Shown: piece by piece, positions 4,598 through 19,133 of the stretch
Position numbering within the stretch: position 1 is the first letter of the stretch
How the letters are laid out: every line of letters starts with the position of its first letter
From: a virus
Lineage: Duplodnaviria; Heunggongvirae; Uroviricota; Caudoviricetes
Virus record (IMG/VR): IMGVR_UViG_2617271072_000004
Coordinates: 32,001-96,000 of that record
Length of the DNA stretch: 64,000 nt
Strand: one strand, 5' to 3'
Program-made: the position numbers and the translations under genes
Notes under the pieces: generated by a model
Seen by the model: the letters and a program-made list of their open reading frames with translations, nothing else
Told to the model about the DNA's origin: nothing
Database searches by the model: none

Positions 4598-5050
4598 TCA
4601 GATACGTGCGGATGTGGCATTACCGTAATGACGGTGCTGACGGACCACCTTATTGAAAAGTTGACGCGCCATCACCCAAGGCTGGTGCTCCCGGCGTTCC
4701 TTTTCGTCCTGCGTCATATAGAGTTCGTTCTGGAGTTTTTCATCAAACCGGCGCGGAGCGCGGCTGCGGCGAAAGAATTCAGGATTCAGAGAGTGGATCT
4801 GAAATCTACGTGGGCGTGTACTGTCATCAATCAAAACAGACGAATACTTAGACACAGCGATAGCCTTTAAGCGCAGATAAACATCGCGCTTATCGACATC
4901 CAGATGCGGGTATTCCTTTTCAAGAATTGCTGCGAGTTCTTTCGCTGATAGAAGAGATTTAGTGCGGATCATGTAATCCGCAATCTCGTACGATGTTATT
5001 CGTGAGTGATTTATTTCCATGAAGTGGCGTCCCTGCCAGTTAAGTAACAT
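4598..5050 (-). CDS. lpa: Lpa, late promoter activator (150 aa)
   Basis: 150-aa ORF directly upstream of pacA, as P1 gene 10. Confidence 0.8.
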   Translation of the reverse strand: MLLNWQGRHFMEINHSRITSYEIADYMIRTKSLLSAKELAAILEKEYPHLDVDKRDVYLRLKAIAVSKYSSVLIDDSTRPRRFQIHSLNPEFFRRSRAPRRFDEKLQNELYMTQDEKERREHQPWVMARQLFNKVVRQHRHYGNATSARI

Positions 5051-5120
5051 CCTGTCACCTACTGATTAGCCCATGTCAACTAATCAACGTGGAATATAAT
5101 ACCCTCGATTAAAGAAATAG

Positions 5121-5137
5121 CAATACATTAGAGCAAT
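5121..5137 (-). promoter_or_regulatory. C1-operator-like half site upstream of lpa
   Basis: ATTGCTCTAAT core (11/17) between the lpa start and the upstream gene. Confidence 0.4.
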
Positions 5138-5138
5138 T

Positions 5139-6182
5139 TTATCTAACGCTCGACGAGTGACTTGTGATAGCGCCGACTCCAAGCGCGTAATCAAAGAACA
5201 ATCGTTGATGCATCGCCAGCCTACCGTGCGTCTTCTCCCAATTATCGCGGTCACGCTCAATATCACGCTGGCATGACTGGCACAGAGGAATAGCATAAAT
5301 GTCATGCGCGCATAATCGACTATGACGAACGATATAAGGCGTAATGTGAGCGCCAGCTCCCGCAGCTCCACAGCCACAGCATGGACGGGAAGCCACAAAG
5401 TCCATGTACTCGGGCAATTTTAGCGATTGAAGTTTTGGTATTTTGAAATGCGCCATACCTGGGTCGGAGTCAACATCCACAGGGCATACTTTTGCACGCA
5501 TCGGCGCGGCGCGTTCTTCCATCATCTGAACATATGCTGTAGCGCGATCGTCATACGGGCGAATATCCGCCTCTTTCAGAGGTCCGCTATCCTGCGGAGT
5601 AGCCTTCATCTTATTTATTGATATGCGGCAGACTTCTTCCGGCATCAGGTGCATCATGTTGCGCATGAAAGCCCACCAGCACAGCTCCTGAATACTTAAA
5701 TCATGGCTATTTGAAAGGCCCATTTCCTGACGGGCGACATCCAGTATCCAGTTAACGCGATTATTGTGCAGCGTTTCTTTCAGCTCATTAAAACCACGCA
5801 TCCGGTAATGGTTATCGTGATGCCAGCACAACAACACCGCGCTATTGTCTCGTTCAGCGTGGACAATATGGTTGTCACACCAACTACGATCTGCGGCCTG
5901 GCATTGACCCTCTTTCCTACGCAACCACGCCACCAGCGCGTCAATTCCACCAATACGGCGAAACAGTTCATCGCTGTTAAAAAACGGCTGCAACGCCTCA
6001 TTTGTTGCCATGGTTTGCTCGGTAACAACGAGGCCGTCTTCCATGTGCTCGATTAACTCACGCGGCACCGGCTCCATGATAAATTTACGGCCAGCCTCCA
6101 CCAGTTTTCTGACCTCCTGATCCACTTTGAACGTGGCGAGGCCAAGCTCTTTCTGTACAAAGGGAGTAATTACGGCTTTCAC
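5139..6182 (-). CDS. hypothetical protein with two Cys/His-rich zinc-binding modules (DUF968/HNH-like)
   Basis: 347-aa ORF; CxxC...HxxH...PLCxxC motifs repeated in the middle and at the C-terminus. Confidence 0.6.
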
Positions 6183-8466: not shown

Positions 8467-9117
8467 TCAGCTTTCGTTGGCATGGTCCACCTCATGCTTT
8501 TCAGCCACCAGCGGCAATAAAGCCCTGGCCATCTTATGAACCAATAGTGCATCAATAATGCCAAGCGTATGCCCCGGCTTAATGTTTAATGCCGCCTCAA
8601 GGTGACACCTTTCCAGGTCACTTTTCTCGGCTTGTTTATGATGATCTGGTGTAATAACGTCGCCCAAAACACGGCTAATTCTTTCTCGTAATTGCTGGGT
8701 GCCAGCACACTTGATCGCTGTATCGTGGAGACGGTTAACCAGTTCGCGATAAACATGCGGCTTAATGCGGATACGTTCACCGGTGACGCCCTTTCCTGGC
8801 GCTGGCACCGAACTATCCGGAATATCCGGATAGTTGCCAGCCTCGTAAGCTACCCGCAGCCAGTGCATGAATGTTTCAGTGGACACACAACCACAGTCCA
8901 CATCGATTTTTCCGCGTTGCTGTTCCAGCCAATGCTCAAAATTCAATCTACACGTATTACTTTCATGTTGCTCTTTTTGTCTCAAGGCCAGCATCTGCTG
9001 GGCTATTTCCAATACTTCATCTGCCGTATATCCAGCACCGTGACCATACATTTCGATACGGGAAATAATCTCTGATATGCGCTCTTCAGTGATTCTGGTC
9101 ATTTCTTTTTGCGCCAT
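8467..9117 (-). CDS. hypothetical protein (216 aa)
   Basis: ORF in co-directional minus-strand gene string. Confidence 0.6.
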   Translation of the reverse strand: MAQKEMTRITEERISEIISRIEMYGHGAGYTADEVLEIAQQMLALRQKEQHESNTCRLNFEHWLEQQRGKIDVDCGCVSTETFMHWLRVAYEAGNYPDIPDSSVPAPGKGVTGERIRIKPHVYRELVNRLHDTAIKCAGTQQLRERISRVLGDVITPDHHKQAEKSDLERCHLEAALNIKPGHTLGIIDALLVHKMARALLPLVAEKHEVDHANES

Positions 9118-9473
9118 TTCTTTTCACATTCCTTAGTCCATTCTTCAATGTTCATTTTGGCAATATCAGTCATTCCATCACCTAAGAAATACTTTTTCCG
9201 GTATGTCTTGCACTTAAACCACACTACAACAGCCACCAGCCAGAAAATAAAAGGCCATACAGCAATACCAACGACAGCCGCGATAAAGCCCAATAGCCAT
9301 AAATGAAGCTCTCCAACTTCTGTTTCCGGCAATATTCTTAAAGAATTAAACAGCAGGATGAACGAATGGTCGTATGCATTGGCAGTATAAGACATGCAAT
9401 CCATATAATTAAAGTCATAGCCTGCGGCTGCCGCCCATAATGGGCGGTCAAGAAAATGTTTTAGTGTCATCAT
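9099..9473 (-). CDS. hypothetical membrane protein (124 aa)
   Basis: hydrophobic segment LLGFIAAVVGIAVWPFIFWLVAVVVWF. Confidence 0.55.
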   Translation of the reverse strand: MMTLKHFLDRPLWAAAAGYDFNYMDCMSYTANAYDHSFILLFNSLRILPETEVGELHLWLLGFIAAVVGIAVWPFIFWLVAVVVWFKCKTYRKKYFLGDGMTDIAKMNIEEWTKECEKKWRKKK

Positions 9474-9479
9474 ATAAAT

Positions 9480-9869
9480 TTAAGGTTCAGACCAGTTATC
9501 TTCAATAGCAATGCTTAATCTTTGTAGCCATTCTGCTAATTTCAGCATTGCTTCTCTTTCGCTTAAACCACGAGGAAAATCATCAAGCGAAATTGTTGGC
9601 TTGAATCCCCCGCAATTATCCATTTCAACTGTCAGATTTTGTTCCAGCACGGTATTTCTTACGCGGCTATTGTGCCGGAGCAAATATACTGAGCGTGATT
9701 TATTGGTTTTGTGGTCTAGCTTATATTCGGTAAGTATCATCTGGCTTTTGCCATGATTATTACCTCTCCACATACTTACCTCACTTAATAAAACAACTCC
9801 ATGCGTAGTTGATGATTTTTTCCCACGTAATATAAATCTGCACTCCGGCAGTAAAACCAAAGCCAACAA
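9480..9869 (-). CDS. hypothetical protein (129 aa; start uncertain)
   Basis: ORF only. Confidence 0.45.
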   Translation of the reverse strand: MLALVLLPECRFILRGKKSSTTHGVVLLSEVSMWRGNNHGKSQMILTEYKLDHKTNKSRSVYLLRHNSRVRNTVLEQNLTVEMDNCGGFKPTISLDDFPRGLSEREAMLKLAEWLQRLSIAIEDNWSEP

Positions 9870-9952
9870 TTGCTGAAAAAATCAAAAACATTTACTTTTG
9901 ACATTATAAATTTTCTCTCGGTGTCGTAGGTGATAGCACCATAATTGATAAT

Positions 9953-10189
9953 TTAGTGAGTTAGCAGTTCCAGTTCATTTTTGATGATTTCCGCATGAGC
10001 ATCATCGTTATCAACACTTAGCTCGTTTAATGCTTCTCGCACTACATCAACTTCTTCAGGCTGAAAGAAGTCGTCGCGGTAATCACCAAATAGAACCGAA
10101 ACCAGCCTGCCACCAGCAACATCAAGATTGGCGCTAACAGGTGGCTCTTTGCCATCCTCAAATTCGACTACAAAAGTTAATTTTCCCAT
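9953..10189 (-). CDS. hypothetical acidic protein (78 aa)
   Basis: ORF only. Confidence 0.5.
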   Translation of the reverse strand: MGKLTFVVEFEDGKEPPVSANLDVAGGRLVSVLFGDYRDDFFQPEEVDVVREALNELSVDNDDAHAEIIKNELELLTH

Positions 10190-10265
10190 CGTTACCCCCA
10201 GAAGATAAAAATAGCGGCAATCGCCATAGCTACGCCTACAATCGCAAATGCTTCAGGCCAGCTTA

Positions 10266-11465
10266 TTACCTCACCTCCAGTCTCCATACCGCCTGACCAA
10301 TCCGGCTGGCATGGGTATCTTTGGATACTGTTCCATCTTTAGCCAGCTCCATAAGAATTTTGCGCAAATCTGCCGACCGCCATTCTTCATCAGGAAATTC
10401 CTTCTCCATTGCCAACCGCAGATTCCAGGTTGCCATCCTGAATGGATATTCCCCGCCGAGAGCTTTATCTTGCAGGGCAGCCCGGGAACGCATCACCTGC
10501 AAAACCTTCTCTTTTACATCCATCATTTCGCCTCCTGCGGCGGTTCTGGTAGCGGCATCCAGAACAAGGCGTTCCCTACCCTGAAGCATGGCAGCGTGGC
10601 AGGCATCCTCTACGCCTTTAACTGCATCTGCGCAGTAGTTATAGCGATTGCATTCCACTAACTTCTGCTTGAGATTTTCAATTGCTTGCGCGACATCATC
10701 CTGTATTTCCGGAACTGGCGGAACGGCTGTCTGCTGCTCTCGAACGTCATTAGTCGCTATCGGTTCTGCTGCCAACTGACTGGCATATTTGTTAATGGTA
10801 ACGATAAGCTCTTGCTCAGCCTCATCCAGACAATCACCGATACCTCGCCTGTCACCGTCAAAATCATCGAAATCGGCACGAATCCTGGCAACCTTCAGGA
10901 TTGCGGACAACACCTCACTAGGAATTGCCGGATAGTTGGTTGACGTTTCCGCGATTTCCCGAAAATTATTGGTTGACGAATTCTTGTTTTCCCGAAAGTT
11001 TCCGGACTGAAGCATGGCGGCGCGGCAGGCGTTAAGCGCGTTTTGCACGCGTTTAGCGTTCTGTACTTCGTATTTAGGTGCGGCTGCCAATGCCCATAGC
11101 CAACCAATTTCATAGCTATCAGCTTTTGATAGAGCACATTCCATTTCCAGTGTTATTTTCTTAGGTACGAGTTGCCAATCATCTGGCACTACCGGTGCTG
11201 GCAGCTCGCGATACAGCGAGATTACACGACGCGGGTCCGCATATTTATCTGGCGGACACTGAAATATCTCACCGAAACCATACTTCCTGACATCGCGCAG
11301 TTCCTCTTCATCAGTCCATGCCACCGGTTCTGCTTCCAGCGATGCCAGAGCAATCCGTGCCAGCTCTTCCGCTTCTTCTGCTGGCAGTACAACGTTGCTA
11401 CCAGGTCCGTATGTTTCGCGCCACTGCTTGATTGTCAGCAGTCGCTCTTTGGTAATAGTGATCAT
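10266..11465 (-). CDS. hypothetical protein (399 aa) with internal duplicated motif AC(R/H)AAMLQ
   Basis: long ORF; internal repeat suggests a duplicated domain. Confidence 0.65.
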   Translation of the reverse strand: MITITKERLLTIKQWRETYGPGSNVVLPAEEAEELARIALASLEAEPVAWTDEEELRDVRKYGFGEIFQCPPDKYADPRRVISLYRELPAPVVPDDWQLVPKKITLEMECALSKADSYEIGWLWALAAAPKYEVQNAKRVQNALNACRAAMLQSGNFRENKNSSTNNFREIAETSTNYPAIPSEVLSAILKVARIRADFDDFDGDRRGIGDCLDEAEQELIVTINKYASQLAAEPIATNDVREQQTAVPPVPEIQDDVAQAIENLKQKLVECNRYNYCADAVKGVEDACHAAMLQGRERLVLDAATRTAAGGEMMDVKEKVLQVMRSRAALQDKALGGEYPFRMATWNLRLAMEKEFPDEEWRSADLRKILMELAKDGTVSKDTHASRIGQAVWRLEVR

Positions 11466-12166
11466 GCCGCGTTTCCTTCTTTCTTATTAACAATTACACC
11501 GTCATATATTTCATTAAGGTGCCCTCTCAACTCCATGCGCCTTAATGCAGATAACATGTAATCGCATTCAACCTGCTTATTTCCAGTAAATGGCTTATCG
11601 TCAGGATTACCCCAACAGCAATTACCCTTGGGCCACCCATGTACTTTCCGTACTCTTCCGTTAACAACGTGAAGTAATCCCCAGCCAGGTGGTAAATCCT
11701 CAATTGAAATAATTCCCGGCTCACTAATAAAGAATCGCCAGTCGCCCATGCCAAGTGAGGGATTTTTACGGAAACGCTTTTTTCTATCTGCCAACAAGTC
11801 AGCACGAGAACACTTCGCCTCTATCAGGCATGATGCTGAATTTCTGAACCCCATAGCATCTGGCTGTTCTCCGGTACTGGTTACAGCTATAAAGCGGTCA
11901 TGAAAACAAACCTTGAACCCGTTGCGCTTAAGGAACTTGTACGCAATTTGACAGAGTTCGCGGTGTGTTAACGCCATATCACTCTCCTTTAGTGCGCAAA
12001 TGGTTTTTCCAGCGGTTTTGCGCCGCGCTGGGCTTTTGCAAAAACCACAATCCATCATCCCGTAATATTTCATCAACCCCATCCGTCGGTTGCTGAGTCT
12101 CACCCACTGCCAGACGCCAGGAGCGTTTCTACGAACTAACAGAATCTTTGCTTTACGGTTTTTCAT
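11462..12166 (-). CDS. putative PD-(D/E)xK-type nuclease-like protein (234 aa; start uncertain)
   Basis: motif QPDAMGF...CLIEAKCS consistent with a D...ExK catalytic core. Confidence 0.5.
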   Translation of the reverse strand: MKNRKAKILLVRRNAPGVWQWVRLSNRRMGLMKYYGMMDCGFCKSPARRKTAGKTICALKESDMALTHRELCQIAYKFLKRNGFKVCFHDRFIAVTSTGEQPDAMGFRNSASCLIEAKCSRADLLADRKKRFRKNPSLGMGDWRFFISEPGIISIEDLPPGWGLLHVVNGRVRKVHGWPKGNCCWGNPDDKPFTGNKQVECDYMLSALRRMELRGHLNEIYDGVIVNKKEGNAA

Positions 12167-12512
12167 CTTACAGCGTACCCTTTCTTCCGCCTGTTCTGTG
12201 ACGCAGTAGGCTTACGCTTTGCGGCAAAAGCCACCTGACCAAATGGATGGAGTACCGCTATCTTATGGTTGCTAATAACCAGCTCCACCACACGCACAGG
12301 TCGCTGTAAAAAAAAGTCGTTTTGCCTTACGGTTTTTCATCGCTTTGCTCTCCTGCGTCTCTTTGCTGCTCGTCGTGCCGCTGCAATACCGGTATGGCGG
12401 CGCTTTGGTGCCGGGATGATGTTGTCAGCCATCAGGACATGTGGCTTTGCAATTAGCGCAGAAGCCCAAAAACGAGTCGGGTACGGTAACAAGCCGATAC
12501 ATGCCACACGCA

Positions 12513-13211
12513 CTACTCACCTCCGTTGATGCGAATGCCAGCGGCACGGGAATCATTCCATCGCTTTACTTCTTCACGAATTACGTCAATGCATTCTTTC
12601 GAATCCATTAGGTAATCTTCATCAAAAAGCCTTTCCTGTTCGTTTTCTATCGCAACAATGATTGCTTCAACTAACTTTTGTGCCTGAGAACCACTTTCTA
12701 ACTCTGCAATGCGCTTCTCTGCGGCTTCCAGCTTCTCGCGCATATCGTCAACGTACTCGACCAGAGATCCGCCAGCAGGAATTTCGCACTCCTCGACCAG
12801 TTGGAAGTAGATATCAGCTGCGGCCCGTGTGTTGCTATGCCTAGCGTCGCCCATCTCACCTTCACGAAGAGCATCGCGTTCGGCGGTAAGATTGGCTATT
12901 TTGCTGTCTTTGCCTTCCAGCTCAACGCGAAGCCTCCCTACCGTTAGCGCAATTTCCTCGTTCTCCTGGTCACGGCGTTTGATGTATTGCTGGTTTCTTT
13001 CCCGTTCATCCAGCAGCGCCAAGACGGTAGCCGGATTGGCTGCGGCGATGAATTCAGCATCACGAGATTCGTTTTCACTGAACACCATAGCTATTTGCTC
13101 ATGCTTTATGCCGTCAGTGGAGTAAATCTCATCGTCGAATTCAACAGCCCACTTACCTTTCGTAGCCTTCTCCGCCGCCTCGCGCAGTTCTTGATAGTTA
13201 ATTTTGCTCAC
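12513..13211 (-). CDS. Ead/Ea22-like protein (232 aa), paralog 1
   Basis: GTG start with AAAGGAGG ribosome-binding site; N-terminal SKINYQELREAAEKATKGKW. Confidence 0.65.
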   Translation of the reverse strand: MSKINYQELREAAEKATKGKWAVEFDDEIYSTDGIKHEQIAMVFSENESRDAEFIAAANPATVLALLDERERNQQYIKRRDQENEEIALTVGRLRVELEGKDSKIANLTAERDALREGEMGDARHSNTRAAADIYFQLVEECEIPAGGSLVEYVDDMREKLEAAEKRIAELESGSQAQKLVEAIIVAIENEQERLFDEDYLMDSKECIDVIREEVKRWNDSRAAGIRINGGE

Positions 13212-13275
13212 TGGTTGCCTCCTTTGCGAAGCTGGGCAGCAAAGTCAACTAACCACTCAGTCATTTCAACCTTCC

Positions 13276-13920
13276 CTACCAGGTCTGAACCAGGGTGCAT
13301 ACAGCAATCACTCTGCGCCGCTTTGAAATCCTTATACTCATATTCTTGGGCCACCAGATTTTTGCAGCTTCTATAGCAGCATCCACCCCCTGCGCCCGAA
13401 CTTCAGCCAGGAAAGCGTCGGTGGCTGGAATTTGCGGCATCCCTCCGTCTGTTGCGCAGATATACGCATCAGATATTTCATCCTGCTGGCCATCAAACAC
13501 GTAGCAACAGCCCCTGATAAACAGCTTCATTGAGGCATTCTCCACTGCCAGCGCCGTGCGATTACCATCCAGCTCTGCAATGCGCTGTTTTGCGGCATCC
13601 AGTTCAATCGACAATTTTTCCAACTGCTCTTGATGCTTCTTGTATTCCTGATATGCGTGCCAAGACTGACCTTTGCGCACACTATCAGTGATATCAGTAA
13701 TCTGTTCTGGTGTTAGCGTGGTCAGTGGCTGTGATGGGAAAATAAGCACTTTCCCGGAATCCCAATCAAAACCAGCGTGAATTGACTGAACCTCAACTGA
13801 AGGTGTTGAACCAATGCTGCCAGGCGAATGAACAACGATTGTTACATCCATATCGCGACGATGGCTGTGGTTGTTGGACAAAATACGATTCACCAACTCA
13901 GAAAATTTGGAAAATTTCAT
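13276..13920 (-). CDS. hypothetical protein (214 aa) sharing motif PATDAFLAE(V/I)RA with the gene at 14204-14905
   Basis: ORF; shared internal motif; C-terminus may be frameshifted at an A5 run. Confidence 0.5.
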   Translation of the reverse strand: MKFSKFSELVNRILSNNHSHRRDMDVTIVVHSPGSIGSTPSVEVQSIHAGFDWDSGKVLIFPSQPLTTLTPEQITDITDSVRKGQSWHAYQEYKKHQEQLEKLSIELDAAKQRIAELDGNRTALAVENASMKLFIRGCCYVFDGQQDEISDAYICATDGGMPQIPATDAFLAEVRAQGVDAAIEAAKIWWPKNMSIRISKRRRVIAVCTLVQTW

Positions 13921-14240
13921 GCTGATTCCCCTTTCTCTGCTCTCTCCTGTCGGAACATCACTATCATCAGGTCGCCTTTTGTCGCTATCCTGGCTGTTGT
14001 ACCTGGTTCAATGCGGCTAAGCTCAAATGCGTCATAGAACGCTTCTAATGCCTTCTGGCGTAGTTCCTGTTTGCGCCGTTTTTTCCACTGTTTTAGGAAA
14101 ATGGAACCCAGCCATCGCCATGTACGGGACATGATGTAAAGCCAACCGAGAAGTGCCAGACCGGTATTTAGGAGCGTATCGATCGTTATTGTCGTGTCGA
14201 TATTCACTGGCTGCTTCCTTTGCGAATCTGTTCCGCCCAT
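13917..14240 (-). CDS. hypothetical small membrane protein (107 aa)
   Basis: ORF with a hydrophobic segment; overlaps neighbours. Confidence 0.3.
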   Translation of the reverse strand: MGGTDSQRKQPVNIDTTITIDTLLNTGLALLGWLYIMSRTWRWLGSIFLKQWKKRRKQELRQKALEAFYDAFELSRIEPGTTARIATKGDLMIVMFRQERAEKGESA

Positions 14241-14905
14241 TCTTCAAGGGATTTCTCCGCATATTCACCAGACAGGCCATCAATCGGATGCGCTTCATTA
14301 GCCAACTCTTCTTTCGCTGACAAAATCATGCGTGTAACGTCGAAAACTTCACGCAAAGACTTATTGATAAATCCGTGATTGAACGCAGCAGCAAGACGGC
14401 TGGCGGTATAGTTAATCCCCTCGTTGCGTGCTTCCGCACGAATTTCAGCCAGAAAAGCATCGGTAGCTGGAGTTTCGCTGTGGTGTAGGGCATCGTTGAT
14501 AATCATTGCAGCAACACCAGCCTGCCCTGCATCCGTGACCGACACATGCTCAAGAGTTACGGCCATTGCGTGTTTCAGCCCGGCGTTCTCTGCCACCAGC
14601 GCCGCGAGCTTAGTCTCAAGCGGTGCTATTCGGCACATAGCATCAATATTTGTGTCCTCCAGGCGCTTAATTTCACCAAGTAGCGCCAGTGCAACCTTTG
14701 GGTTGAATGCGGCAACATAACGAGCGTTGTTCTCTGCGTTTTTCAGCCCATCAAAGCCGGTCCATTTGATAACATCTTCACATCGTTTATCACCGGGCGT
14801 ATGCACCGCATACGTACCAGTACCCGGCGAAATAAATGCGACCCATTCGCCCTGTGTTGCCTGTTTTGCTATCTCACGCAGTGCCCGGTAATTAATTTTG
14901 CTCAC
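14204..14905 (-). CDS. Ead/Ea22-like protein (233 aa), paralog 2
   Basis: GTG start at 14905 with AAAGGAGG ribosome-binding site; N-terminal VSKINYRALREIAKQATQGEW. Confidence 0.65.
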   Translation of the reverse strand: MSKINYRALREIAKQATQGEWVAFISPGTGTYAVHTPGDKRCEDVIKWTGFDGLKNAENNARYVAAFNPKVALALLGEIKRLEDTNIDAMCRIAPLETKLAALVAENAGLKHAMAVTLEHVSVTDAGQAGVAAMIINDALHHSETPATDAFLAEIRAEARNEGINYTASRLAAAFNHGFINKSLREVFDVTRMILSAKEELANEAHPIDGLSGEYAEKSLEEWAEQIRKGSSQ

Positions 14906-15134
14906 TGGCTGCCTCCTTTGCGGAGTTGCGCTTCGATGCACGAAAAAAAAGACTCCCGAGTATGACTGTTAAGAGCTGGTGCGAACGCCGCGTTAAGAAC
15001 GGCAGCATCACAGCCGTCATCAATATAGAGCGCAATTTTTTTTCTCCAGGCGCGCTTTGGCTTCCTGCAACTGCATACCCCGGCACGCACGCGGGATATA
15101 ATCAGCAATTTGAGCGATAGCTTTTTCGTTCTGT

Positions 15135-15338
15135 TTAAACATGCTTCACCTCGATAGGCTTGATGGTGTCTAACAGCAGTCGACGGCGCGTATTTTCTGC
15201 AAAGTGGCGGCGTCCGGTATCTTTGTGGTAAAACTCATTTTTGCCGACGACCCACATCCGCTCTGTTTGGTGCAGTTTTTTTACCTTCGGGCCATCTTTG
15301 GTGATCACGGTACCGGTATGGGTTTTTACGATTGTCAT
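15135..15338 (-). CDS. hypothetical protein (67 aa)
   Basis: ORF translationally coupled to the PAPS-reductase-like gene. Confidence 0.45.
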   Translation of the reverse strand: MTIVKTHTGTVITKDGPKVKKLHQTERMWVVGKNEFYHKDTGRRHFAENTRRRLLLDTIKPIEVKHV

Positions 15339-16213
15339 TCCACTACCTCTTCGAATTTCAACTCCAATTGGTCACCCCAGATTTCACATGATTCGGAACA
15401 CGAACCAGTATCAAACCGCTTGGCCAGCACCATCGCCTGATACAAATTTCTGTAGTCACTGTCGGCATACATTCTGGCAATCCCGTCAAGCGTCAGGTGG
15501 CCACGGTACATAACGTCTTTACCTGTTCTGCGATGACCATCCCTGACGTGTTTGCCTGTAACCAGTTCATTAAAAACCCGCATCAGACCTGGTTCGTCTT
15601 TACATGCAAGCCCCAGCTTTTGCGTTGACTTTTTGATGCAAAAAACACAGTTCCCGAGGTGCTCCGGGATTTGCAAATCAAAAGGTTGTTTTCGCCACCA
15701 CCGGATAACATCCGACTTATCAAAATCTGACAGTTCGGCAAGATACCGGACGCCCGGTTTCGGTTTCAGCCTACGGGGTTCGTCCGCACGAATACCCAGC
15801 CATGTGATGTAATTCCCTCGCCCAAAATGGTCATCGCAATATTTCGTGAAAGGGGTGAGTTTTAGCCTTTCAGTACAGAACGCGCCGCCGATGTATGGCG
15901 TACCGTACTTTTTAACCATGTCCATAAACGGTTTAAGCACCGGCATTCGCGTCTGAATATCCTTTGGTTCCCATTCCGTATAACCATTTGGCTTCCCAAT
16001 TTCTGGATTTATATCGACCTGCAACACCGTTAGCGGTACGTTCCAGAACTTCACAACCTCACGAATAAAGCGATACGTCAGAGGATGTTCACAGCCGGTA
16101 TCCATAAAAATGAAATGGACGCTAGCGCCAGCTTTTCGCTGTGCTTCCATCAGATGAACGAGATAAGCCGATGTTCGTCCACCTGAAAAGCTGACGACTT
16201 GATGCATACTCAC
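15335..16213 (-). CDS. phosphoadenosine-phosphosulfate reductase family protein (PP-loop ATP pyrophosphatase fold, 292 aa)
   Basis: N-terminal PP-loop SFSGGRTS; CysH/DndC-like family. Confidence 0.8.
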   Translation of the reverse strand: MSMHQVVSFSGGRTSAYLVHLMEAQRKAGASVHFIFMDTGCEHPLTYRFIREVVKFWNVPLTVLQVDINPEIGKPNGYTEWEPKDIQTRMPVLKPFMDMVKKYGTPYIGGAFCTERLKLTPFTKYCDDHFGRGNYITWLGIRADEPRRLKPKPGVRYLAELSDFDKSDVIRWWRKQPFDLQIPEHLGNCVFCIKKSTQKLGLACKDEPGLMRVFNELVTGKHVRDGHRRTGKDVMYRGHLTLDGIARMYADSDYRNLYQAMVLAKRFDTGSCSESCEIWGDQLELKFEEVVE

Positions 16214-16216
16214 GGT

Positions 16217-16795
16217 TTATTCCTGAATGCGCTTAAACTCGATTACCCATACCAACGGGTTAGATAGCCAGTTATCCTGCCCGTAAATACTGCGCCAGAT
16301 ATCACCAAAACCAACGCGATAAACAGCTTCAGATGGCGTAATCTTGTACGTCGCCGGAGTTGCGCCTTCTGCTTTAGCATCTGCCTCGCTCATGTCATGC
16401 AGCCGTTCCACACGCACGTCGGTAATTTCCAGAAGAATGCGCGATGCCCAGCGCGGCATGTGAATTGATGGCGTCCACTTTTCTGATACTGGTTTATTAC
16501 AAACCTCGACCGGAACCCGGTGCGTTTGTTCTGTCCAGGAGTTACGCACGCTTGCGCGATAAACCAGCGTTGCGACGTCCGTCGCTTTGCCATGTACCCG
16601 GTAGGTTTCGCGAACCCAAATACGATCGCCCGGTTGACCATATGGACAATGCTTGGCAAGCAACTCTGCGGCCACTGCCCGTCCATAGAATTTTTCTTCA
16701 ACAATCCTGCGAGTCTGTGTTTTATTCCCGCCAAGAATTGCCCGGACCATCTCATCGTTAAAAATCATGCCGCGCTCTTTCACTTCGCCTTTCAT
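16217..16795 (-). CDS. ASCH/PUA-like domain protein (192 aa)
   Basis: motif ILGGNKTQTRR resembling the ASCH GxKTxExR signature; strong ribosome-binding site. Confidence 0.5.
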   Translation of the reverse strand: MKGEVKERGMIFNDEMVRAILGGNKTQTRRIVEEKFYGRAVAAELLAKHCPYGQPGDRIWVRETYRVHGKATDVATLVYRASVRNSWTEQTHRVPVEVCNKPVSEKWTPSIHMPRWASRILLEITDVRVERLHDMSEADAKAEGATPATYKITPSEAVYRVGFGDIWRSIYGQDNWLSNPLVWVIEFKRIQE

Positions 16796-16809
16796 ACATC
16801 CCCCTTACC

Positions 16810-16896
16810 CATGTGCGACGATGCCGCCAAAAGTGATAGAGAACAGCCAGAAATAGATCGCGGCCATAATGATTTTGAATGCCGTGTTCATATTTT
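16810..16896 (-). CDS. possible small hydrophobic peptide (28 aa)
   Basis: ATG with AGGAG ribosome-binding site; MNTAFKIIMAAIYFWLFSITFGGIVAHG. Confidence 0.25.
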
Positions 16897-16973
16897 CAGC
16901 TCCTGTGATTGATTGGATACATGCCGCGCCTTGCGGCATGTTTTAATTTTCACTTTCTCTGTTTTAAAAATCA

Positions 16974-16990
16974 AGATTTATTAGAGCAAT
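16974..16990 (-). promoter_or_regulatory. C1 repressor operator
   Basis: minus-strand ATTGCTCTAATAAATCT (16/17). Confidence 0.75.
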
Positions 16991-17496
16991 TATTGTTGAT
17001 GAAGAAGTGCATTTTCATATTCCCTGACCATTAACGTAAGTACGCCGTGACTCCTGAAAACACGCGCCACTTCAATCTTATCTTCCAGCGCGAACGCAAT
17101 TTTACTTAGACCAATTTTCTTCAGGAGATCAATCTTTGCAGGGCCGTCATTTCTGTCATCGGTGGCAGGACGCATAGATAGCAAAGGCTCAGCCCCATTT
17201 GTTACGTGCTTACGCAGCCAGGCTCGTGTTTTATCCCTTGCGATCTCACAGCGCCCGGTTACAAACCAGACCGTGTAAACGTTAAATAACTGGCGCACCA
17301 TATCAATAACCGGAGTGATGGGAGTATCGGTGTCACAGGCGAGATTAAACTCGTTCCAGTCCTTTGTTAATGCACCTTTACCTGGTGGCGGAAGCAAATG
17401 CAGTCTGTCTTCAGTTGCCTCTGATATTGTTCCATCAATATCGACTATGACGATATACGGACGTTCCTGGTGTGCGTGTTTATTGAAAATACTCAA
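16990..17496 (-). CDS. HAD-superfamily phosphatase-like protein (168 aa)
   Basis: motif I VDIDGTIS (DxDGT) near the N-terminus. Confidence 0.65.
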   Translation of the reverse strand: MSIFNKHAHQERPYIVIVDIDGTISEATEDRLHLLPPPGKGALTKDWNEFNLACDTDTPITPVIDMVRQLFNVYTVWFVTGRCEIARDKTRAWLRKHVTNGAEPLLSMRPATDDRNDGPAKIDLLKKIGLSKIAFALEDKIEVARVFRSHGVLTLMVREYENALLHQQ

Positions 17497-17569
17497 ATGC
17501 CCTCCTCATTGGACGAAAAAAAATGCTGGTGGGCGCACTCCACCAGCATTAAAAGTGACGCTGTAACTA

Positions 17570-18832
17570 TCAGCGGACGTAAATAGTGCCGCCGTTCTCT
17601 TTTTCCCATGCATCGCTACGTGCATAGCAAACATCGAGAAGTCTTCTTGCCGCTGTTTCCTCTAAACCCAATTCGACAACCAACTGCTCATGACGGCGGG
17701 TAACCACATCAAACAGGGTATGCAACCCTTTAGTTGCCAGATCATCAATGAATTCCGGTTCGAACGGCAGCTCTGCATCTGCCAACATAACCTCTTGCGC
17801 CCACTCAACTCGACGGACCAATTCCGGGCGGCGGCTTTCCATCTCTTTACAGATCAATTCATGGAAGAACTCTACCCAACCTTCCGGCTGGAACTCGCGG
17901 AAAATTGCCAACGGCTGGAAGTTTGGCATCAACCATTCGTTGATTCGGATATCAATGGCATAGCCCATGTCGCAGCAGAACTGATAAGCAAAGTCCAGCT
18001 TAGAAACGATATAAGGACGCTCGTTATTGAACTCTTTAGGCGATGAGATCCCATAAGCCAGGAGGCGCGGGAAGAAGGAGATTTGCCCTAACGTCGGATG
18101 AAGTTTGCTTGCAGGGAAACGGCGCTCAGTAATGCCATACATTTCCTTCTTGAGCGTCGCAAATTTGGCATTCTCATTAACCAGCGCGGTAACCTCTGCT
18201 TTTTTATTAGCAAATGCCACGCGCGCTTCGCTTGCATCTTTAATAGTTTTTTTGAGCTGTTGGTTAAGGTCGGCGACCTGCTTACGCAGTTCCTGTCGCT
18301 CGCTTTTAGCTTTGTTATAGCGTTTCTCAAGGTTAAAAGGATCAAGTTTCATGATCTCTTTATATTGAGATTTTAGCGTTGAAATCTGTGAGTTCCGCAG
18401 TTCAACCATCGCGGTCATTTCATTGAGTTTTGTTTCCAGCTCAATGCTTATACGTTCGGCATTATCAGCACGCTGGTTGGCGTCATGCGTCGCATCGTCG
18501 ATCGCGTCCTGTTGCTGGCGTTTCAAATGTTCAATTTGTAGCTGAAGCTCTTCAATTTCTTTACCCTTCAGACCGAGATCCAACTGCATATTTTCAGCTG
18601 CATCTACCAGGGAGTTATGGCTATCAGCTTCTGCGTTATAAACATCAATAAGCTGTGCGTGAAGCATCTCCGCTGACTGAACCGCATTATCAAAAAAACG
18701 CGCTGTGAGGTCATCACAACTAACGCGGCGTTGCGCGGCCCGGATGTTCTGGATAATGGCCGGGATACCGGCATTCAGGACGTCAGGGATAGATACATTT
18801 TCGATTGATTGGTTTTGTGCTGAAGTGATCAT
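17570..18832 (-). CDS. hypothetical protein with long N-terminal coiled coil (420 aa)
   Basis: long ORF; heptad-rich N-terminal half. Confidence 0.65.
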   Translation of the reverse strand: MITSAQNQSIENVSIPDVLNAGIPAIIQNIRAAQRRVSCDDLTARFFDNAVQSAEMLHAQLIDVYNAEADSHNSLVDAAENMQLDLGLKGKEIEELQLQIEHLKRQQQDAIDDATHDANQRADNAERISIELETKLNEMTAMVELRNSQISTLKSQYKEIMKLDPFNLEKRYNKAKSERQELRKQVADLNQQLKKTIKDASEARVAFANKKAEVTALVNENAKFATLKKEMYGITERRFPASKLHPTLGQISFFPRLLAYGISSPKEFNNERPYIVSKLDFAYQFCCDMGYAIDIRINEWLMPNFQPLAIFREFQPEGWVEFFHELICKEMESRRPELVRRVEWAQEVMLADAELPFEPEFIDDLATKGLHTLFDVVTRRHEQLVVELGLEETAARRLLDVCYARSDAWEKENGGTIYVR

Positions 18833-18833
18833 T

Positions 18834-19103
18834 TCAAAGTTCCGTATTAGCTTGTGCTTCGGTCATTTTTCCTAAGTATGAAGGAGGAAGGACTACGCAA
18901 TTTGTATCCAGTCCCTCACCTATGGCAGCCTGTAAAATTCTGGCTAAGGTGAGTCTCTTGTTGCGATACCTGGTGATGACATGCCTGATACCGCCGGTCG
19001 GCGTAACAAAGGCGATCAGCCAGTAGTGATATTTCCGTCGGAATGGCCACATAGTGCACCTTGTAGATTGCTCTAATAAAAAAACGTGATGAGTGTACAT
19101 CAC
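18834..19103 (-). CDS. hypothetical protein (89 aa)
   Basis: ORF between the operator pair and the 420-aa gene. Confidence 0.4.
   Translation of the reverse strand: MMYTHHVFLLEQSTRCTMWPFRRKYHYWLIAFVTPTGGIRHVITRYRNKRLTLARILQAAIGEGLDTNCVVLPPSYLGKMTEAQANTEL
19067..19083 (+). promoter_or_regulatory. C1 repressor operator
   Basis: ATTGCTCTAATAAAAAA (14/17). Confidence 0.7.
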
Positions 19104-19116
19104 GTTTTAAAAATAT

Positions 19117-19133
19117 GGAATTATTAGAGCAAT
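19117..19133 (-). promoter_or_regulatory. C1 repressor operator
   Basis: minus-strand ATTGCTCTAATAATTCC; paired with the operator at 19067-19083 around hairpin AACGTGATG-N7-CATCACGTT. Confidence 0.7.

Follow-up and report, generated by a model that had tools for sequence, protein, structure and literature searches.

A divergent pmgT allele and a ninC ortholog side by side in the probably C1-controlled pmgT operon of a P1-like phage-plasmid

In phage P1, the operator annotated directly after pap as 'monovalent C1-controlled operator OpmgT; former Op88' is overlapped by the predicted promoters P2pmgT and P1pmgT (our statements on OpmgT/Op88 are taken from the GenBank AF234172 annotation), and the operon behind it consists of pmgT, encoding a protein of 309 amino acids (aa), pmgU and pmgV, with no PAPS-reductase gene. 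In lambda and P22-like prophages, ninC is flanked by ninB on one side and ninD/ninE on the other and precedes the gene for the Q antiterminator. The present work concerns a 64,000-nucleotide (nt) window, positions 32,001-96,000 of the IMG/VR virus record IMGVR_UViG_2617271072_000004, in which a gene for an ASCH-like protein and a gene for a PP-loop protein of the PAPS-reductase superfamily follow each other behind a counterpart of OpmgT. All coordinates refer to this window, and the gene array lies on its minus strand.

Two other groups of proteins serve as references for the products of these genes. In the E. coli ASCH protein YqfB, an N4-acetylcytidine (ac4C) amidohydrolase, activity is abolished by K21A, T24A or R26A and slowed 100- to 1000-fold by E74A (PMC6972931), and in a 2026 preprint all 19 of the 19 ASCH proteins tested removed ac4C from tRNA, the lysine and the Thr/Glu of their octapeptide being essential (bioRxiv 10.64898/2026.02.27.708502). 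On the PAPS-reductase side, p0018 of Vibrio phage 44E38.1 is a PAPS-Dam fusion which, when moved together with the adjacent p0019 into a sister phage, gave plating on a dndFGH host (Piel et al. 2022; preprint 10.1101/2021.05.05.442762). A paper of September 2026 (PMC13551039) still names this Dnd escape as the sole functional evidence on PAPS reductases of phages.

We found that the PP-loop protein is an ortholog of lambda NinC, that its neighbour belongs to the PmgT family, and that the two genes are independent cassettes which sometimes land side by side. The overall picture that we favour, with moderate confidence, is that of independent accessory cassettes in which NinC would serve DNA-level counter-defence and PmgT would act as a base-deacylating hydrolase. 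The features of the locus are the following.

17496-16990, minus strand: pap, 168-aa HAD phosphatase, whose stop adjoins the operator
16974-16990, minus strand: C1 operator, counterpart of P1 OpmgT (former Op88), 16/17 match to the consensus
16946-16989, minus strand: predicted sigma-70 promoters, counterparts of P2pmgT and P1pmgT, overlapping the operator and placed by homology to P1 only
16919-16941: perfect 10-bp GC-rich hairpin in the 5' leader, terminator-like on the plus strand only
16805-16891, minus strand: small open reading frame (ORF) of 28 aa, hydrophobic and single transmembrane-like, with an AGGAG ribosome-binding site
16217-16795, minus strand: PmgT-family ASCH-fold protein, 192 aa, with the GxKxxTxR motif (G23 K25 T28 R30) and a conserved E143
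15335-16213, minus strand: lambda NinC ortholog, PP-loop protein of the PAPS-reductase superfamily, likely ATG start at 16207 (290 aa)
15135-15338, minus strand: 67-aa ORF (orf67), phrog_1226, E-value 3e-42
15020-15142, minus strand: 40-aa remnant of a 79-aa gene (orf79, phrog_1344), cut by an A8-versus-A7 homopolymer difference at 15036-15043
16704-16785: recombination joint inside the N-terminal coding part of pmgT, from blastn of the window against P1 (L003) and the viral contig L012

NinC and PmgT, two known protein families

The PP-loop ORF can start at the GTG at 16213 (292 aa) or at the ATG at 16207, the latter being the more likely start and the one annotated in plasmid CP098993. The protein is 78.9% identical to lambda NinC over residues 3-287, has the same length (290 aa), and is 94-95% identical to the NinC of Shiga toxin (Stx) phages. 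It is matched over its full length by phrog_424, and more than 5,000 homologs were returned by a word-indexed search. The match to the Pfam model PAPS_reduct (PF01507) reached 37.7 bits (cutoff 22.5) and was confined to residues 6-72. The AlphaFold model (mean predicted local distance difference test, pLDDT, 87) has a Rossmann-like PP-loop fold, followed by a disordered C-terminal tail with a CSESCE motif, and its best structural matches are APS and PAPS reductases. NinC is a PP-loop enzyme of the ATP-pyrophosphatase fold within the PAPS-reductase clade. The earlier sequence-only reading had assigned the protein to this family from its SFSGGRTS motif, and both the Pfam score and the fold bear this out. 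In 47 homologs down to 51% identity, the SFSGGRTS (SxSGGRxS) loop, D38-T-G, E42-H43, C113, C126, C189xxC192 and C272xxxC276-E277 were invariant or nearly so, and the conserved cysteines suggest that NinC may hold an iron-sulfur (Fe-S) or persulfide centre.

The Pfam score, the structural matches and the PHROG class ('moron, auxiliary metabolic gene') would all suit an auxiliary metabolic gene, that is, a true assimilatory PAPS/APS reductase of the CysH type which boosts host sulfur assimilation during infection. However, the Pfam match is limited to the PP-loop region, and the NCBIfam CysH/PAPS/APS models reached only 13-22 bits against cutoffs of 154-254 (NF002537, 22.1 against 154; TIGR00434, 14.6 against 165; TIGR02055, 15.1 against 235). 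CysH carries a C-terminal ECGLH motif with the catalytic cysteine. This motif is not present in the window NinC, whose tail reads TGSCSESCEIW, with the invariant CSESCE-type motif in its place. Since the fusions of NinC homologs to Dam described below also point to DNA, and not sulfate, as the target, we regard a CysH-like role as highly improbable.

The proteins of DNA-modification systems with the same type of domain were compared as well. In PADLOC, NinC was matched by SspD (E-value 1.6e-13, model positions 2-121 of 277), DndC (3e-4) and BrxP (1.7e-4), and the DndC equivalog TIGR03183 scored 17 bits against a cutoff of 290. NinC shares with these three proteins the PP-loop N-terminal domain of the PAPS-reductase superfamily, and its own conserved cysteines suggest an Fe-S or persulfide centre, but the matches are limited to the first ~145 residues of NinC. 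No DndA/D/E, SspA/B/C or BREX partner gene lies near the window NinC, which is surrounded by pap, pmgT, small ORFs and an Ea22-like gene; in lambdoid contexts, nin genes or methyltransferase genes stand around it.

The location of the gene differs from that in lambda, as the window ninC lies in the probably C1-controlled pmgT operon of a P1-like plasmid prophage; the nin location was seen in L250-L255 and in phage Oslo. Stx phages (VT2phi_272, L002, 4435-5313) carry the trio NinC-orf67-orf79 on the early-left side, close to exo/RecT and an Ea22-like gene, and this position outside the nin region indicates that the cassette moves between operons. In Photobacterium (L261-L263), a NinC homolog (5001-5939) lies beside TraN and a UvrD-like helicase in an apparent conjugative element, so the family is not confined to phages.

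The ASCH-like protein is 43% identical overall to P1 PmgT. Its homologs were found by tblastn in 347 phage records from many hosts, and it falls into phrog_874 (unknown function) with an E-value of 1.8e-83. By these comparisons the gene is a divergent allele of P1 pmgT and not a new gene. An exhaustive profile search collected 52,173 representative clusters at 50% identity for the PmgT-like family, nearly all of them stand-alone proteins of 200-240 aa. Among the top 150 representatives almost all stood alone, and three longer ones carried no extra Pfam domain.

The Pfam ASCH model (PF04266) gave 15.3 bits for the window protein, below its gathering threshold of 21.2, and 17.7-19.3 bits for other family members. 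The PmgT alignment profile retrieved nothing meaningful among PDB sequences (best E-value about 1, STN1), and neither the ASCH-like protein nor the orf67 product had a match in NCBIfam or PADLOC. In a fold search, the predicted structure, an ASCH-type beta-barrel, matched ASCH proteins. The earlier call of an ASCH-like protein, made from GxKTxTRR, is in agreement with this fold and with the motif, despite the sub-threshold Pfam score. The motif reads GGNKTQTRR in the window protein. G23, K25, T28, R29 and R30 are invariant in diverse homologs, as is E143 within DAxAEG, in alignments that reach phages of Myxococcus, Vibrio, Salinibacter, Clostridium and Paracoccus.

When PmgT was aligned to YqfB with hhalign, K25, T28 and R30 fell on K21, T24 and R26, and from the motif (DAxAEG against HAEQEN) E143 would be the equivalent of E74. 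PmgT thus shows the GxKxxTxR octapeptide and the later acidic residue of the YqfB-type (GKTR) subgroup, and it keeps the octapeptide residues that are essential in YqfB. It differs from YqfB in being about twice as long, with an insertion of ~50 residues and an extra conserved HMPR motif, and in being phage-borne. This conserved Lys/Thr/Arg(+Glu) set points to a YqfB-type hydrolase rather than to a passive reader of modified bases. The ASCH fold proposed in the sequence-only reading is therefore retained, whereas its idea of a mere binder of modified nucleic acids is not. Many database records already name NinC homologs 'PAPS reductase family protein', and some name PmgT homologs 'ASCH domain protein'.

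The P1 annotation of pmgT reads 'putative morphogenetic function', and one Yersinia phage record labels a homolog 'virion protein', as would be expected if PmgT served virion morphogenesis and its ASCH resemblance were incidental. In a CRISPR interference (CRISPRi) screen, however, knock-down of P1 pmgT left P1 plating unaffected, and both pmgT and lambda ninC were non-essential (PMC10695390). The dispensability of pmgT disfavours the morphogenetic label, and that of both genes fits what is expected of accessory or anti-defence genes. Moreover, the homologs lie in early, recombination and integration regions and not in structural modules, the catalytic-type motif is invariant in very diverse members, and the family counts more than 50,000 representative clusters of mostly stand-alone proteins of 200-240 aa. 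A morphogenetic role seems to us scarcely credible. The possibility that the genes would turn out to be P1 morphogenetic genes devoid of catalytic residues had been raised beforehand: the ASCH gene does map to a gene annotated in this way, yet its catalytic-type residues are conserved.

Association of the two genes

The question whether the two genes form a pair was examined both ways, from PmgT-like loci and from NinC loci. The first sample consisted of 165 loci with a PmgT-like gene and flanks of up to 5 kb, taken from IMG/VR and phage records. A NinC-family gene was present within 5 kb in nine of them: six P1-like or related loci and L098, which share one common junction, then L066, where a NinC-family gene of only 28% identity directly follows the PmgT-like gene, and Clostridium phage Maintenon, with a PAPS reductase 1.1 kb upstream of its PmgT-like gene. 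The other neighbours of PmgT-like genes included Ea22-like, MT-A70, Dam, C5 methyltransferase, RecT/ERF-type recombinase and ParB-like genes, among others.

The second sample consisted of 80 loci in which NinC is 91-99% identical to the window copy. Upstream of NinC stood a 182-aa YfbR-like HD protein in 37 loci, a 147-aa Stx-phage gene in 12 and a PmgT-like gene in 10. These 10 loci have the same 4-nt junction and a single NinC lineage, combined with four ASCH alleles (192, 230, 232 and 242 aa). Ten further NinC lineages were inspected, including the E. coli nin-region type (P0112) and those of Moritella, Oceanimonas, Pantoea (two), Serratia, Photobacterium, Citrobacter and Photorhabdus prophages; a PmgT-like gene was nearby only in the Photorhabdus prophage (L256), in the order NinC-DUF3268-ASCH.

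Each gene also occurs without the other. The same ASCH allele (97-98% identical) is present without NinC in L011 and L013-L015, and in L001 (5447-5515), L009 (3158-3274) and L010 (5583-5651) only a stub of 23-39 NinC codons remains behind the ASCH gene, from which we conclude that NinC was lost by internal deletion in these lineages. Conversely, NinC is found without ASCH in lambda, Stx phages, phage Oslo and Vibrio phages.

The same data bear on the proposal that the ASCH protein and the PP-loop enzyme form a functional pair on one nucleic-acid substrate, one installing or activating a modification which the other reads, edits or removes. The spacing of 3-9 nt, the junction that stays identical in 10 loci despite four ASCH alleles, the independent juxtaposition in L066 with so distant a NinC-family gene, the Photorhabdus arrangement, the upstream PAPS reductase of the Clostridium phage and the methyltransferase neighbours common to both families all speak for such a pair. 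They are set against the rarity of the association on both sides (9/165 and 10/80 loci, the latter all of one NinC lineage), the nearly identical ASCH allele that stands without NinC, the absence of ASCH at the NinC of lambda, Stx, Oslo and Vibrio phages and in six further contexts, and the three NinC-deleted derivatives that keep ASCH. In addition, the gene transferred along with the PAPS-Dam fusion in the Vibrio experiment does not resemble ASCH genes. A functional pair therefore appears unlikely, and the adjacency of the two genes is best explained by mosaic recombination.

The operon and the origin of the arrangement

At 16990..16974, ATTGCTCTAATAAATCT shows a single mismatch to the 17-bp asymmetric C1 consensus ATTGCTCTAATAAATTT. 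With up to three mismatches, 13 matches to this operator were found in the window against 0.30 expected from shuffles, which indicates that the window carries a genuine C1 operator set. The operator and its flanks belong to a segment (16704-18000) that is 96% identical to P1, and the operator follows pap directly, as it does in P1. All four promoter hexamers are present (P2pmgT, TTGCTC..TAAAAC; P1pmgT, TTGATT..GAAAAT; positions transferred from P1), and a generic promoter scan did not call these two counterparts. By homology to P1 OpmgT/Op88, the operon is probably controlled by C1. Elsewhere in the window, C1 sites on opposite strands lie close together or overlap, at 33078-33094 (plus) and 33089-33105 (minus), the latter a perfect match, and at 300-399 and 19067-19133; these are presumably bivalent operators as known from P1.

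In the leader, the hairpin at 16919-16941, ACATGCCGCGCCTTGCGGCATGT, is followed by a T-run on the plus strand, where it resembles a terminator of antisense transcripts. In the mRNA it is a 5' stem-loop and overlaps the upstream ATG of a 44-aa version of the small ORF. The 28-aa product of the latter, MNTAFKIIMAAIYFWLFSITFGGIVAHG (16891..16805, with AGGAG 8 nt upstream), is 96-100% identical, mostly 100%, in every P1-type locus carrying pap, and its ORF has no annotation in the P1 record AF234172. Among 21 distinct operator-to-pmgT leader haplotypes, 4 of the 87 nt inside the ORF were variable against 20 of the 104 nt upstream, and the two recurrent changes in the ORF are both synonymous third-position changes. 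The few variable sites and the synonymous character of these changes provide modest evidence that the ORF encodes a real and constrained small membrane peptide.

The ORFs are tightly coupled, with 9-nt gaps, an ATGA overlap between NinC and orf67 and an 8-nt overlap between orf67 and the 40-aa ORF. The elements listed in the sequence-only reading, namely the C1 operator (the OpmgT/Op88 counterpart with its 16/17 match) and the coupled genes for the hydrophobic peptide, the ASCH-like protein, the PP-loop protein and the 67-aa ORF, were thus all recovered. The operon does not end at 15135 as that reading had it. It runs on through the frameshifted 79-aa gene and many same-strand ORFs to about 8.5 kb. 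In the 79-aa gene (14892-15142), the A8 tract of the window, which stands against A7 in three relatives, may reflect an error of sequencing, a mutation of recent date or a tract prone to slippage. The first large ORF beyond it (14204-14941) is Ea22-like (Pfam Ead_Ea22, E-value 3e-26). Over 12513-14941 (minus strand), several consecutive ORFs have N-termini resembling Ea22, e.g. MSKINYQELREAAE; 14204-14941 is the only one compared with Pfam, and the region resembles a series of Ea22-like paralogs, such as lambdoid early-left regions contain. The orf67 gene follows NinC in 38 of the 80 close NinC loci and also occurs elsewhere without NinC; its identity with lambda NinD was tested and rejected. 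Upstream of the operon, the Pap of P1, annotated as a putative acid phosphatase, matches Pfam HAD_PNKP (PF25109, E-value 4.5e-12) and phrog_415 'polynucleotide kinase', which would fit a 3'-phosphatase acting on nucleic acids, or an enzyme of the RNA-repair type, better than a generic acid phosphatase.

The origin of the arrangement can be read from its relatives. P1-type sequence (96% identical) extends from 18000 down to 16704, the non-P1 contig L012 is 98% identical from 16785 down to 14901, and similarity to Stx phages (92%) is restricted to 16212-14856, which holds NinC, orf67 and orf79. The overlap between the P1 and L012 segments places the crossover within 80 nt that code for the conserved PmgT N-terminus with its catalytic-type octapeptide. 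Homology to P1 does not return before 8848-8502, in pmgU, and about 7.9 kb of cassettes (8849-16703) stand in place of about 0.6 kb of P1 (L003 4093-4694). The P1 PmgU (111 aa) was found to correspond to the C-terminal part of a 216-aa ORF of the window (8467-9117).

The window thus resembles the P1 pmgT operon in its operator class, its position after pap and its flank, leader and first ~30 pmgT codons, and differs from it in carrying a 192-aa pmgT allele, NinC, orf67, orf79, the Ea22-like gene and more same-strand ORFs. The C-terminus of the 309-aa P1 PmgT matches no family member in any frame. A simple frameshift was rejected as its origin, as no frame restores the family C-terminus, and it looks like a deletion or recombination joint to pmgU, the possible scar of a reciprocal deletion. 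The exact segment of the window is shared by at least 14 IncY plasmids. In P1-like plasmids, the DNA behind the C1-controlled pmgT promoter is thus a variable region that takes up accessory genes.

Methyltransferase links and proposed function

Some NinC homologs (P0094, P0107 and P0118) are fused to the phage Dam methyltransferase PF05869. Phage Oslo and prophages of Pantoea, Citrobacter and Serratia have a Dam or MT-A70 gene directly upstream of ninC or less than 1 kb from it, and PmgT-like genes adjoin MT-A70, Dam and C5 methyltransferase genes. Both families can plausibly be linked to nucleic-acid modification. This part of the sequence-only reading gains from the methyltransferase fusions and neighbours and from p0018, whereas the functional pair or module that it proposed loses by the locus counts given above. 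The p0018 protein is 55% identical to the window NinC over 283 aa (E-value 9e-110). Its N-terminal 280 residues are homologous and show every invariant motif, the C-terminal DTGSCSESCE among them, but the window NinC ends at residue 292 and has neither the fused Dam domain nor the DUF6475 partner. The adjacent p0019 was considered as a possible PmgT-like protein and rejected, as it is a DUF6475 protein unrelated to PmgT.

In the picture of independent cassettes with a counter-defence role, the start of the pmgT operon of a P1-like (IncY) phage-plasmid would be transcribed from the promoters overlapping OpmgT/Op88, silent in the lysogen and switched on early after infection or induction, as deduced from the regulation of P1. 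Homologous recombination in the conserved 5' end of pmgT would have swapped the gene body and what lies downstream for a 7.9-kb cassette array of the lambdoid early-region type. PmgT would be a small hydrolase taking an acyl-type group off a cytosine-like base in a nucleoside, RNA or DNA. NinC would adenylate a substrate oxygen with ATP and use an Fe-S or persulfide centre for sulfur or group transfer. Its most likely role is counter-defence at the DNA level, by self-modifying the phage DNA or by interfering with phosphorothioate-dependent restriction. Counter-defence is the best reading of these cassettes because of the early repressor-controlled expression, the dispensability, the mobility of the cassette, the methyltransferase neighbourhoods and the Vibrio precedent. 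The two enzyme activities are inferred from the conserved motifs and folds, the anti-defence role from the considerations just named.

Several points weigh against this picture. In the Vibrio experiment both genes (PAPS-Dam and DUF6475) were moved, so that the PAPS module, Dam and p0019 were not separated (10.1101/2021.05.05.442762), and the window NinC has neither the Dam fusion nor the DUF6475 partner. The ASCH model has a moderate pLDDT of 68 and the Pfam ASCH score is below threshold. C1 regulation is argued here from sequence identity to P1. We know of no case in which a lone DndC/SspD-like enzyme without DndA/D/E or SspA/B/C makes phosphorothioate. A literature search on NinC, pmgT and the combination of ASCH with PAPS reductase returned no functional study or biochemical activity. 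Finally, four independent co-localisations of ASCH and NinC-family genes were found (the E. coli lineage, L066, Photorhabdus L256 and Maintenon), and a looser functional link between the two is possible.

These four co-localisations, together with the shared methyltransferase neighbourhoods, are the reason why we keep one variant of cooperation in view, in which NinC would adenylate and modify (e.g. thiolate) cytosine or the backbone in phage DNA or tRNA and PmgT would deacylate the same site, as a previously undescribed pathway that blinds host defence. We consider this variant very unlikely. Another reading places both enzymes on tRNA: the ASCH protein would be an eraser of ac4C, with the wobble position of elongator tRNA-Met as one possible site, and the PP-loop protein would be a modifier of the TilS/TtcA/NcsA type, the two together reprogramming tRNA or protecting it from tRNA-targeting defences. 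All tested ASCH proteins indeed deacetylate tRNA ac4C, the NinC fold resembles those of tRNA thiolases and TilS to about the same degree, and the neighbouring pap has a polynucleotide-kinase-type 3'-phosphatase domain typical of RNA repair. On the other hand, neither a tRNA-binding domain nor an above-threshold match to a tRNA-modifying family was found, the genomic neighbours are DNA methyltransferases and recombination genes, and the only genetic evidence for the family concerns the DNA-based Dnd restriction. We think it quite unlikely that tRNA is the common substrate, and we retain the picture of independent cassettes with NinC in DNA-level counter-defence.

The components of the locus are known already: the P1 annotation includes the operator and pmgT, ninC has its name from lambda, and both families are in PHROGs. 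What is new is the genomic combination of known families, which are ordinary mosaic accessory genes. Lambda ninC and P1 pmgT are decades-old genes of two phages that are among the best studied. PmgT is now recognised as a YqfB-type ASCH protein, as judged from its predicted fold and intact catalytic-type residues, and NinC shares its family with the anti-Dnd module, to date the one PAPS-reductase module of a phage for which a part in counter-defence has been implied. Both families travel in a pool of methyltransferase-associated early cassettes.

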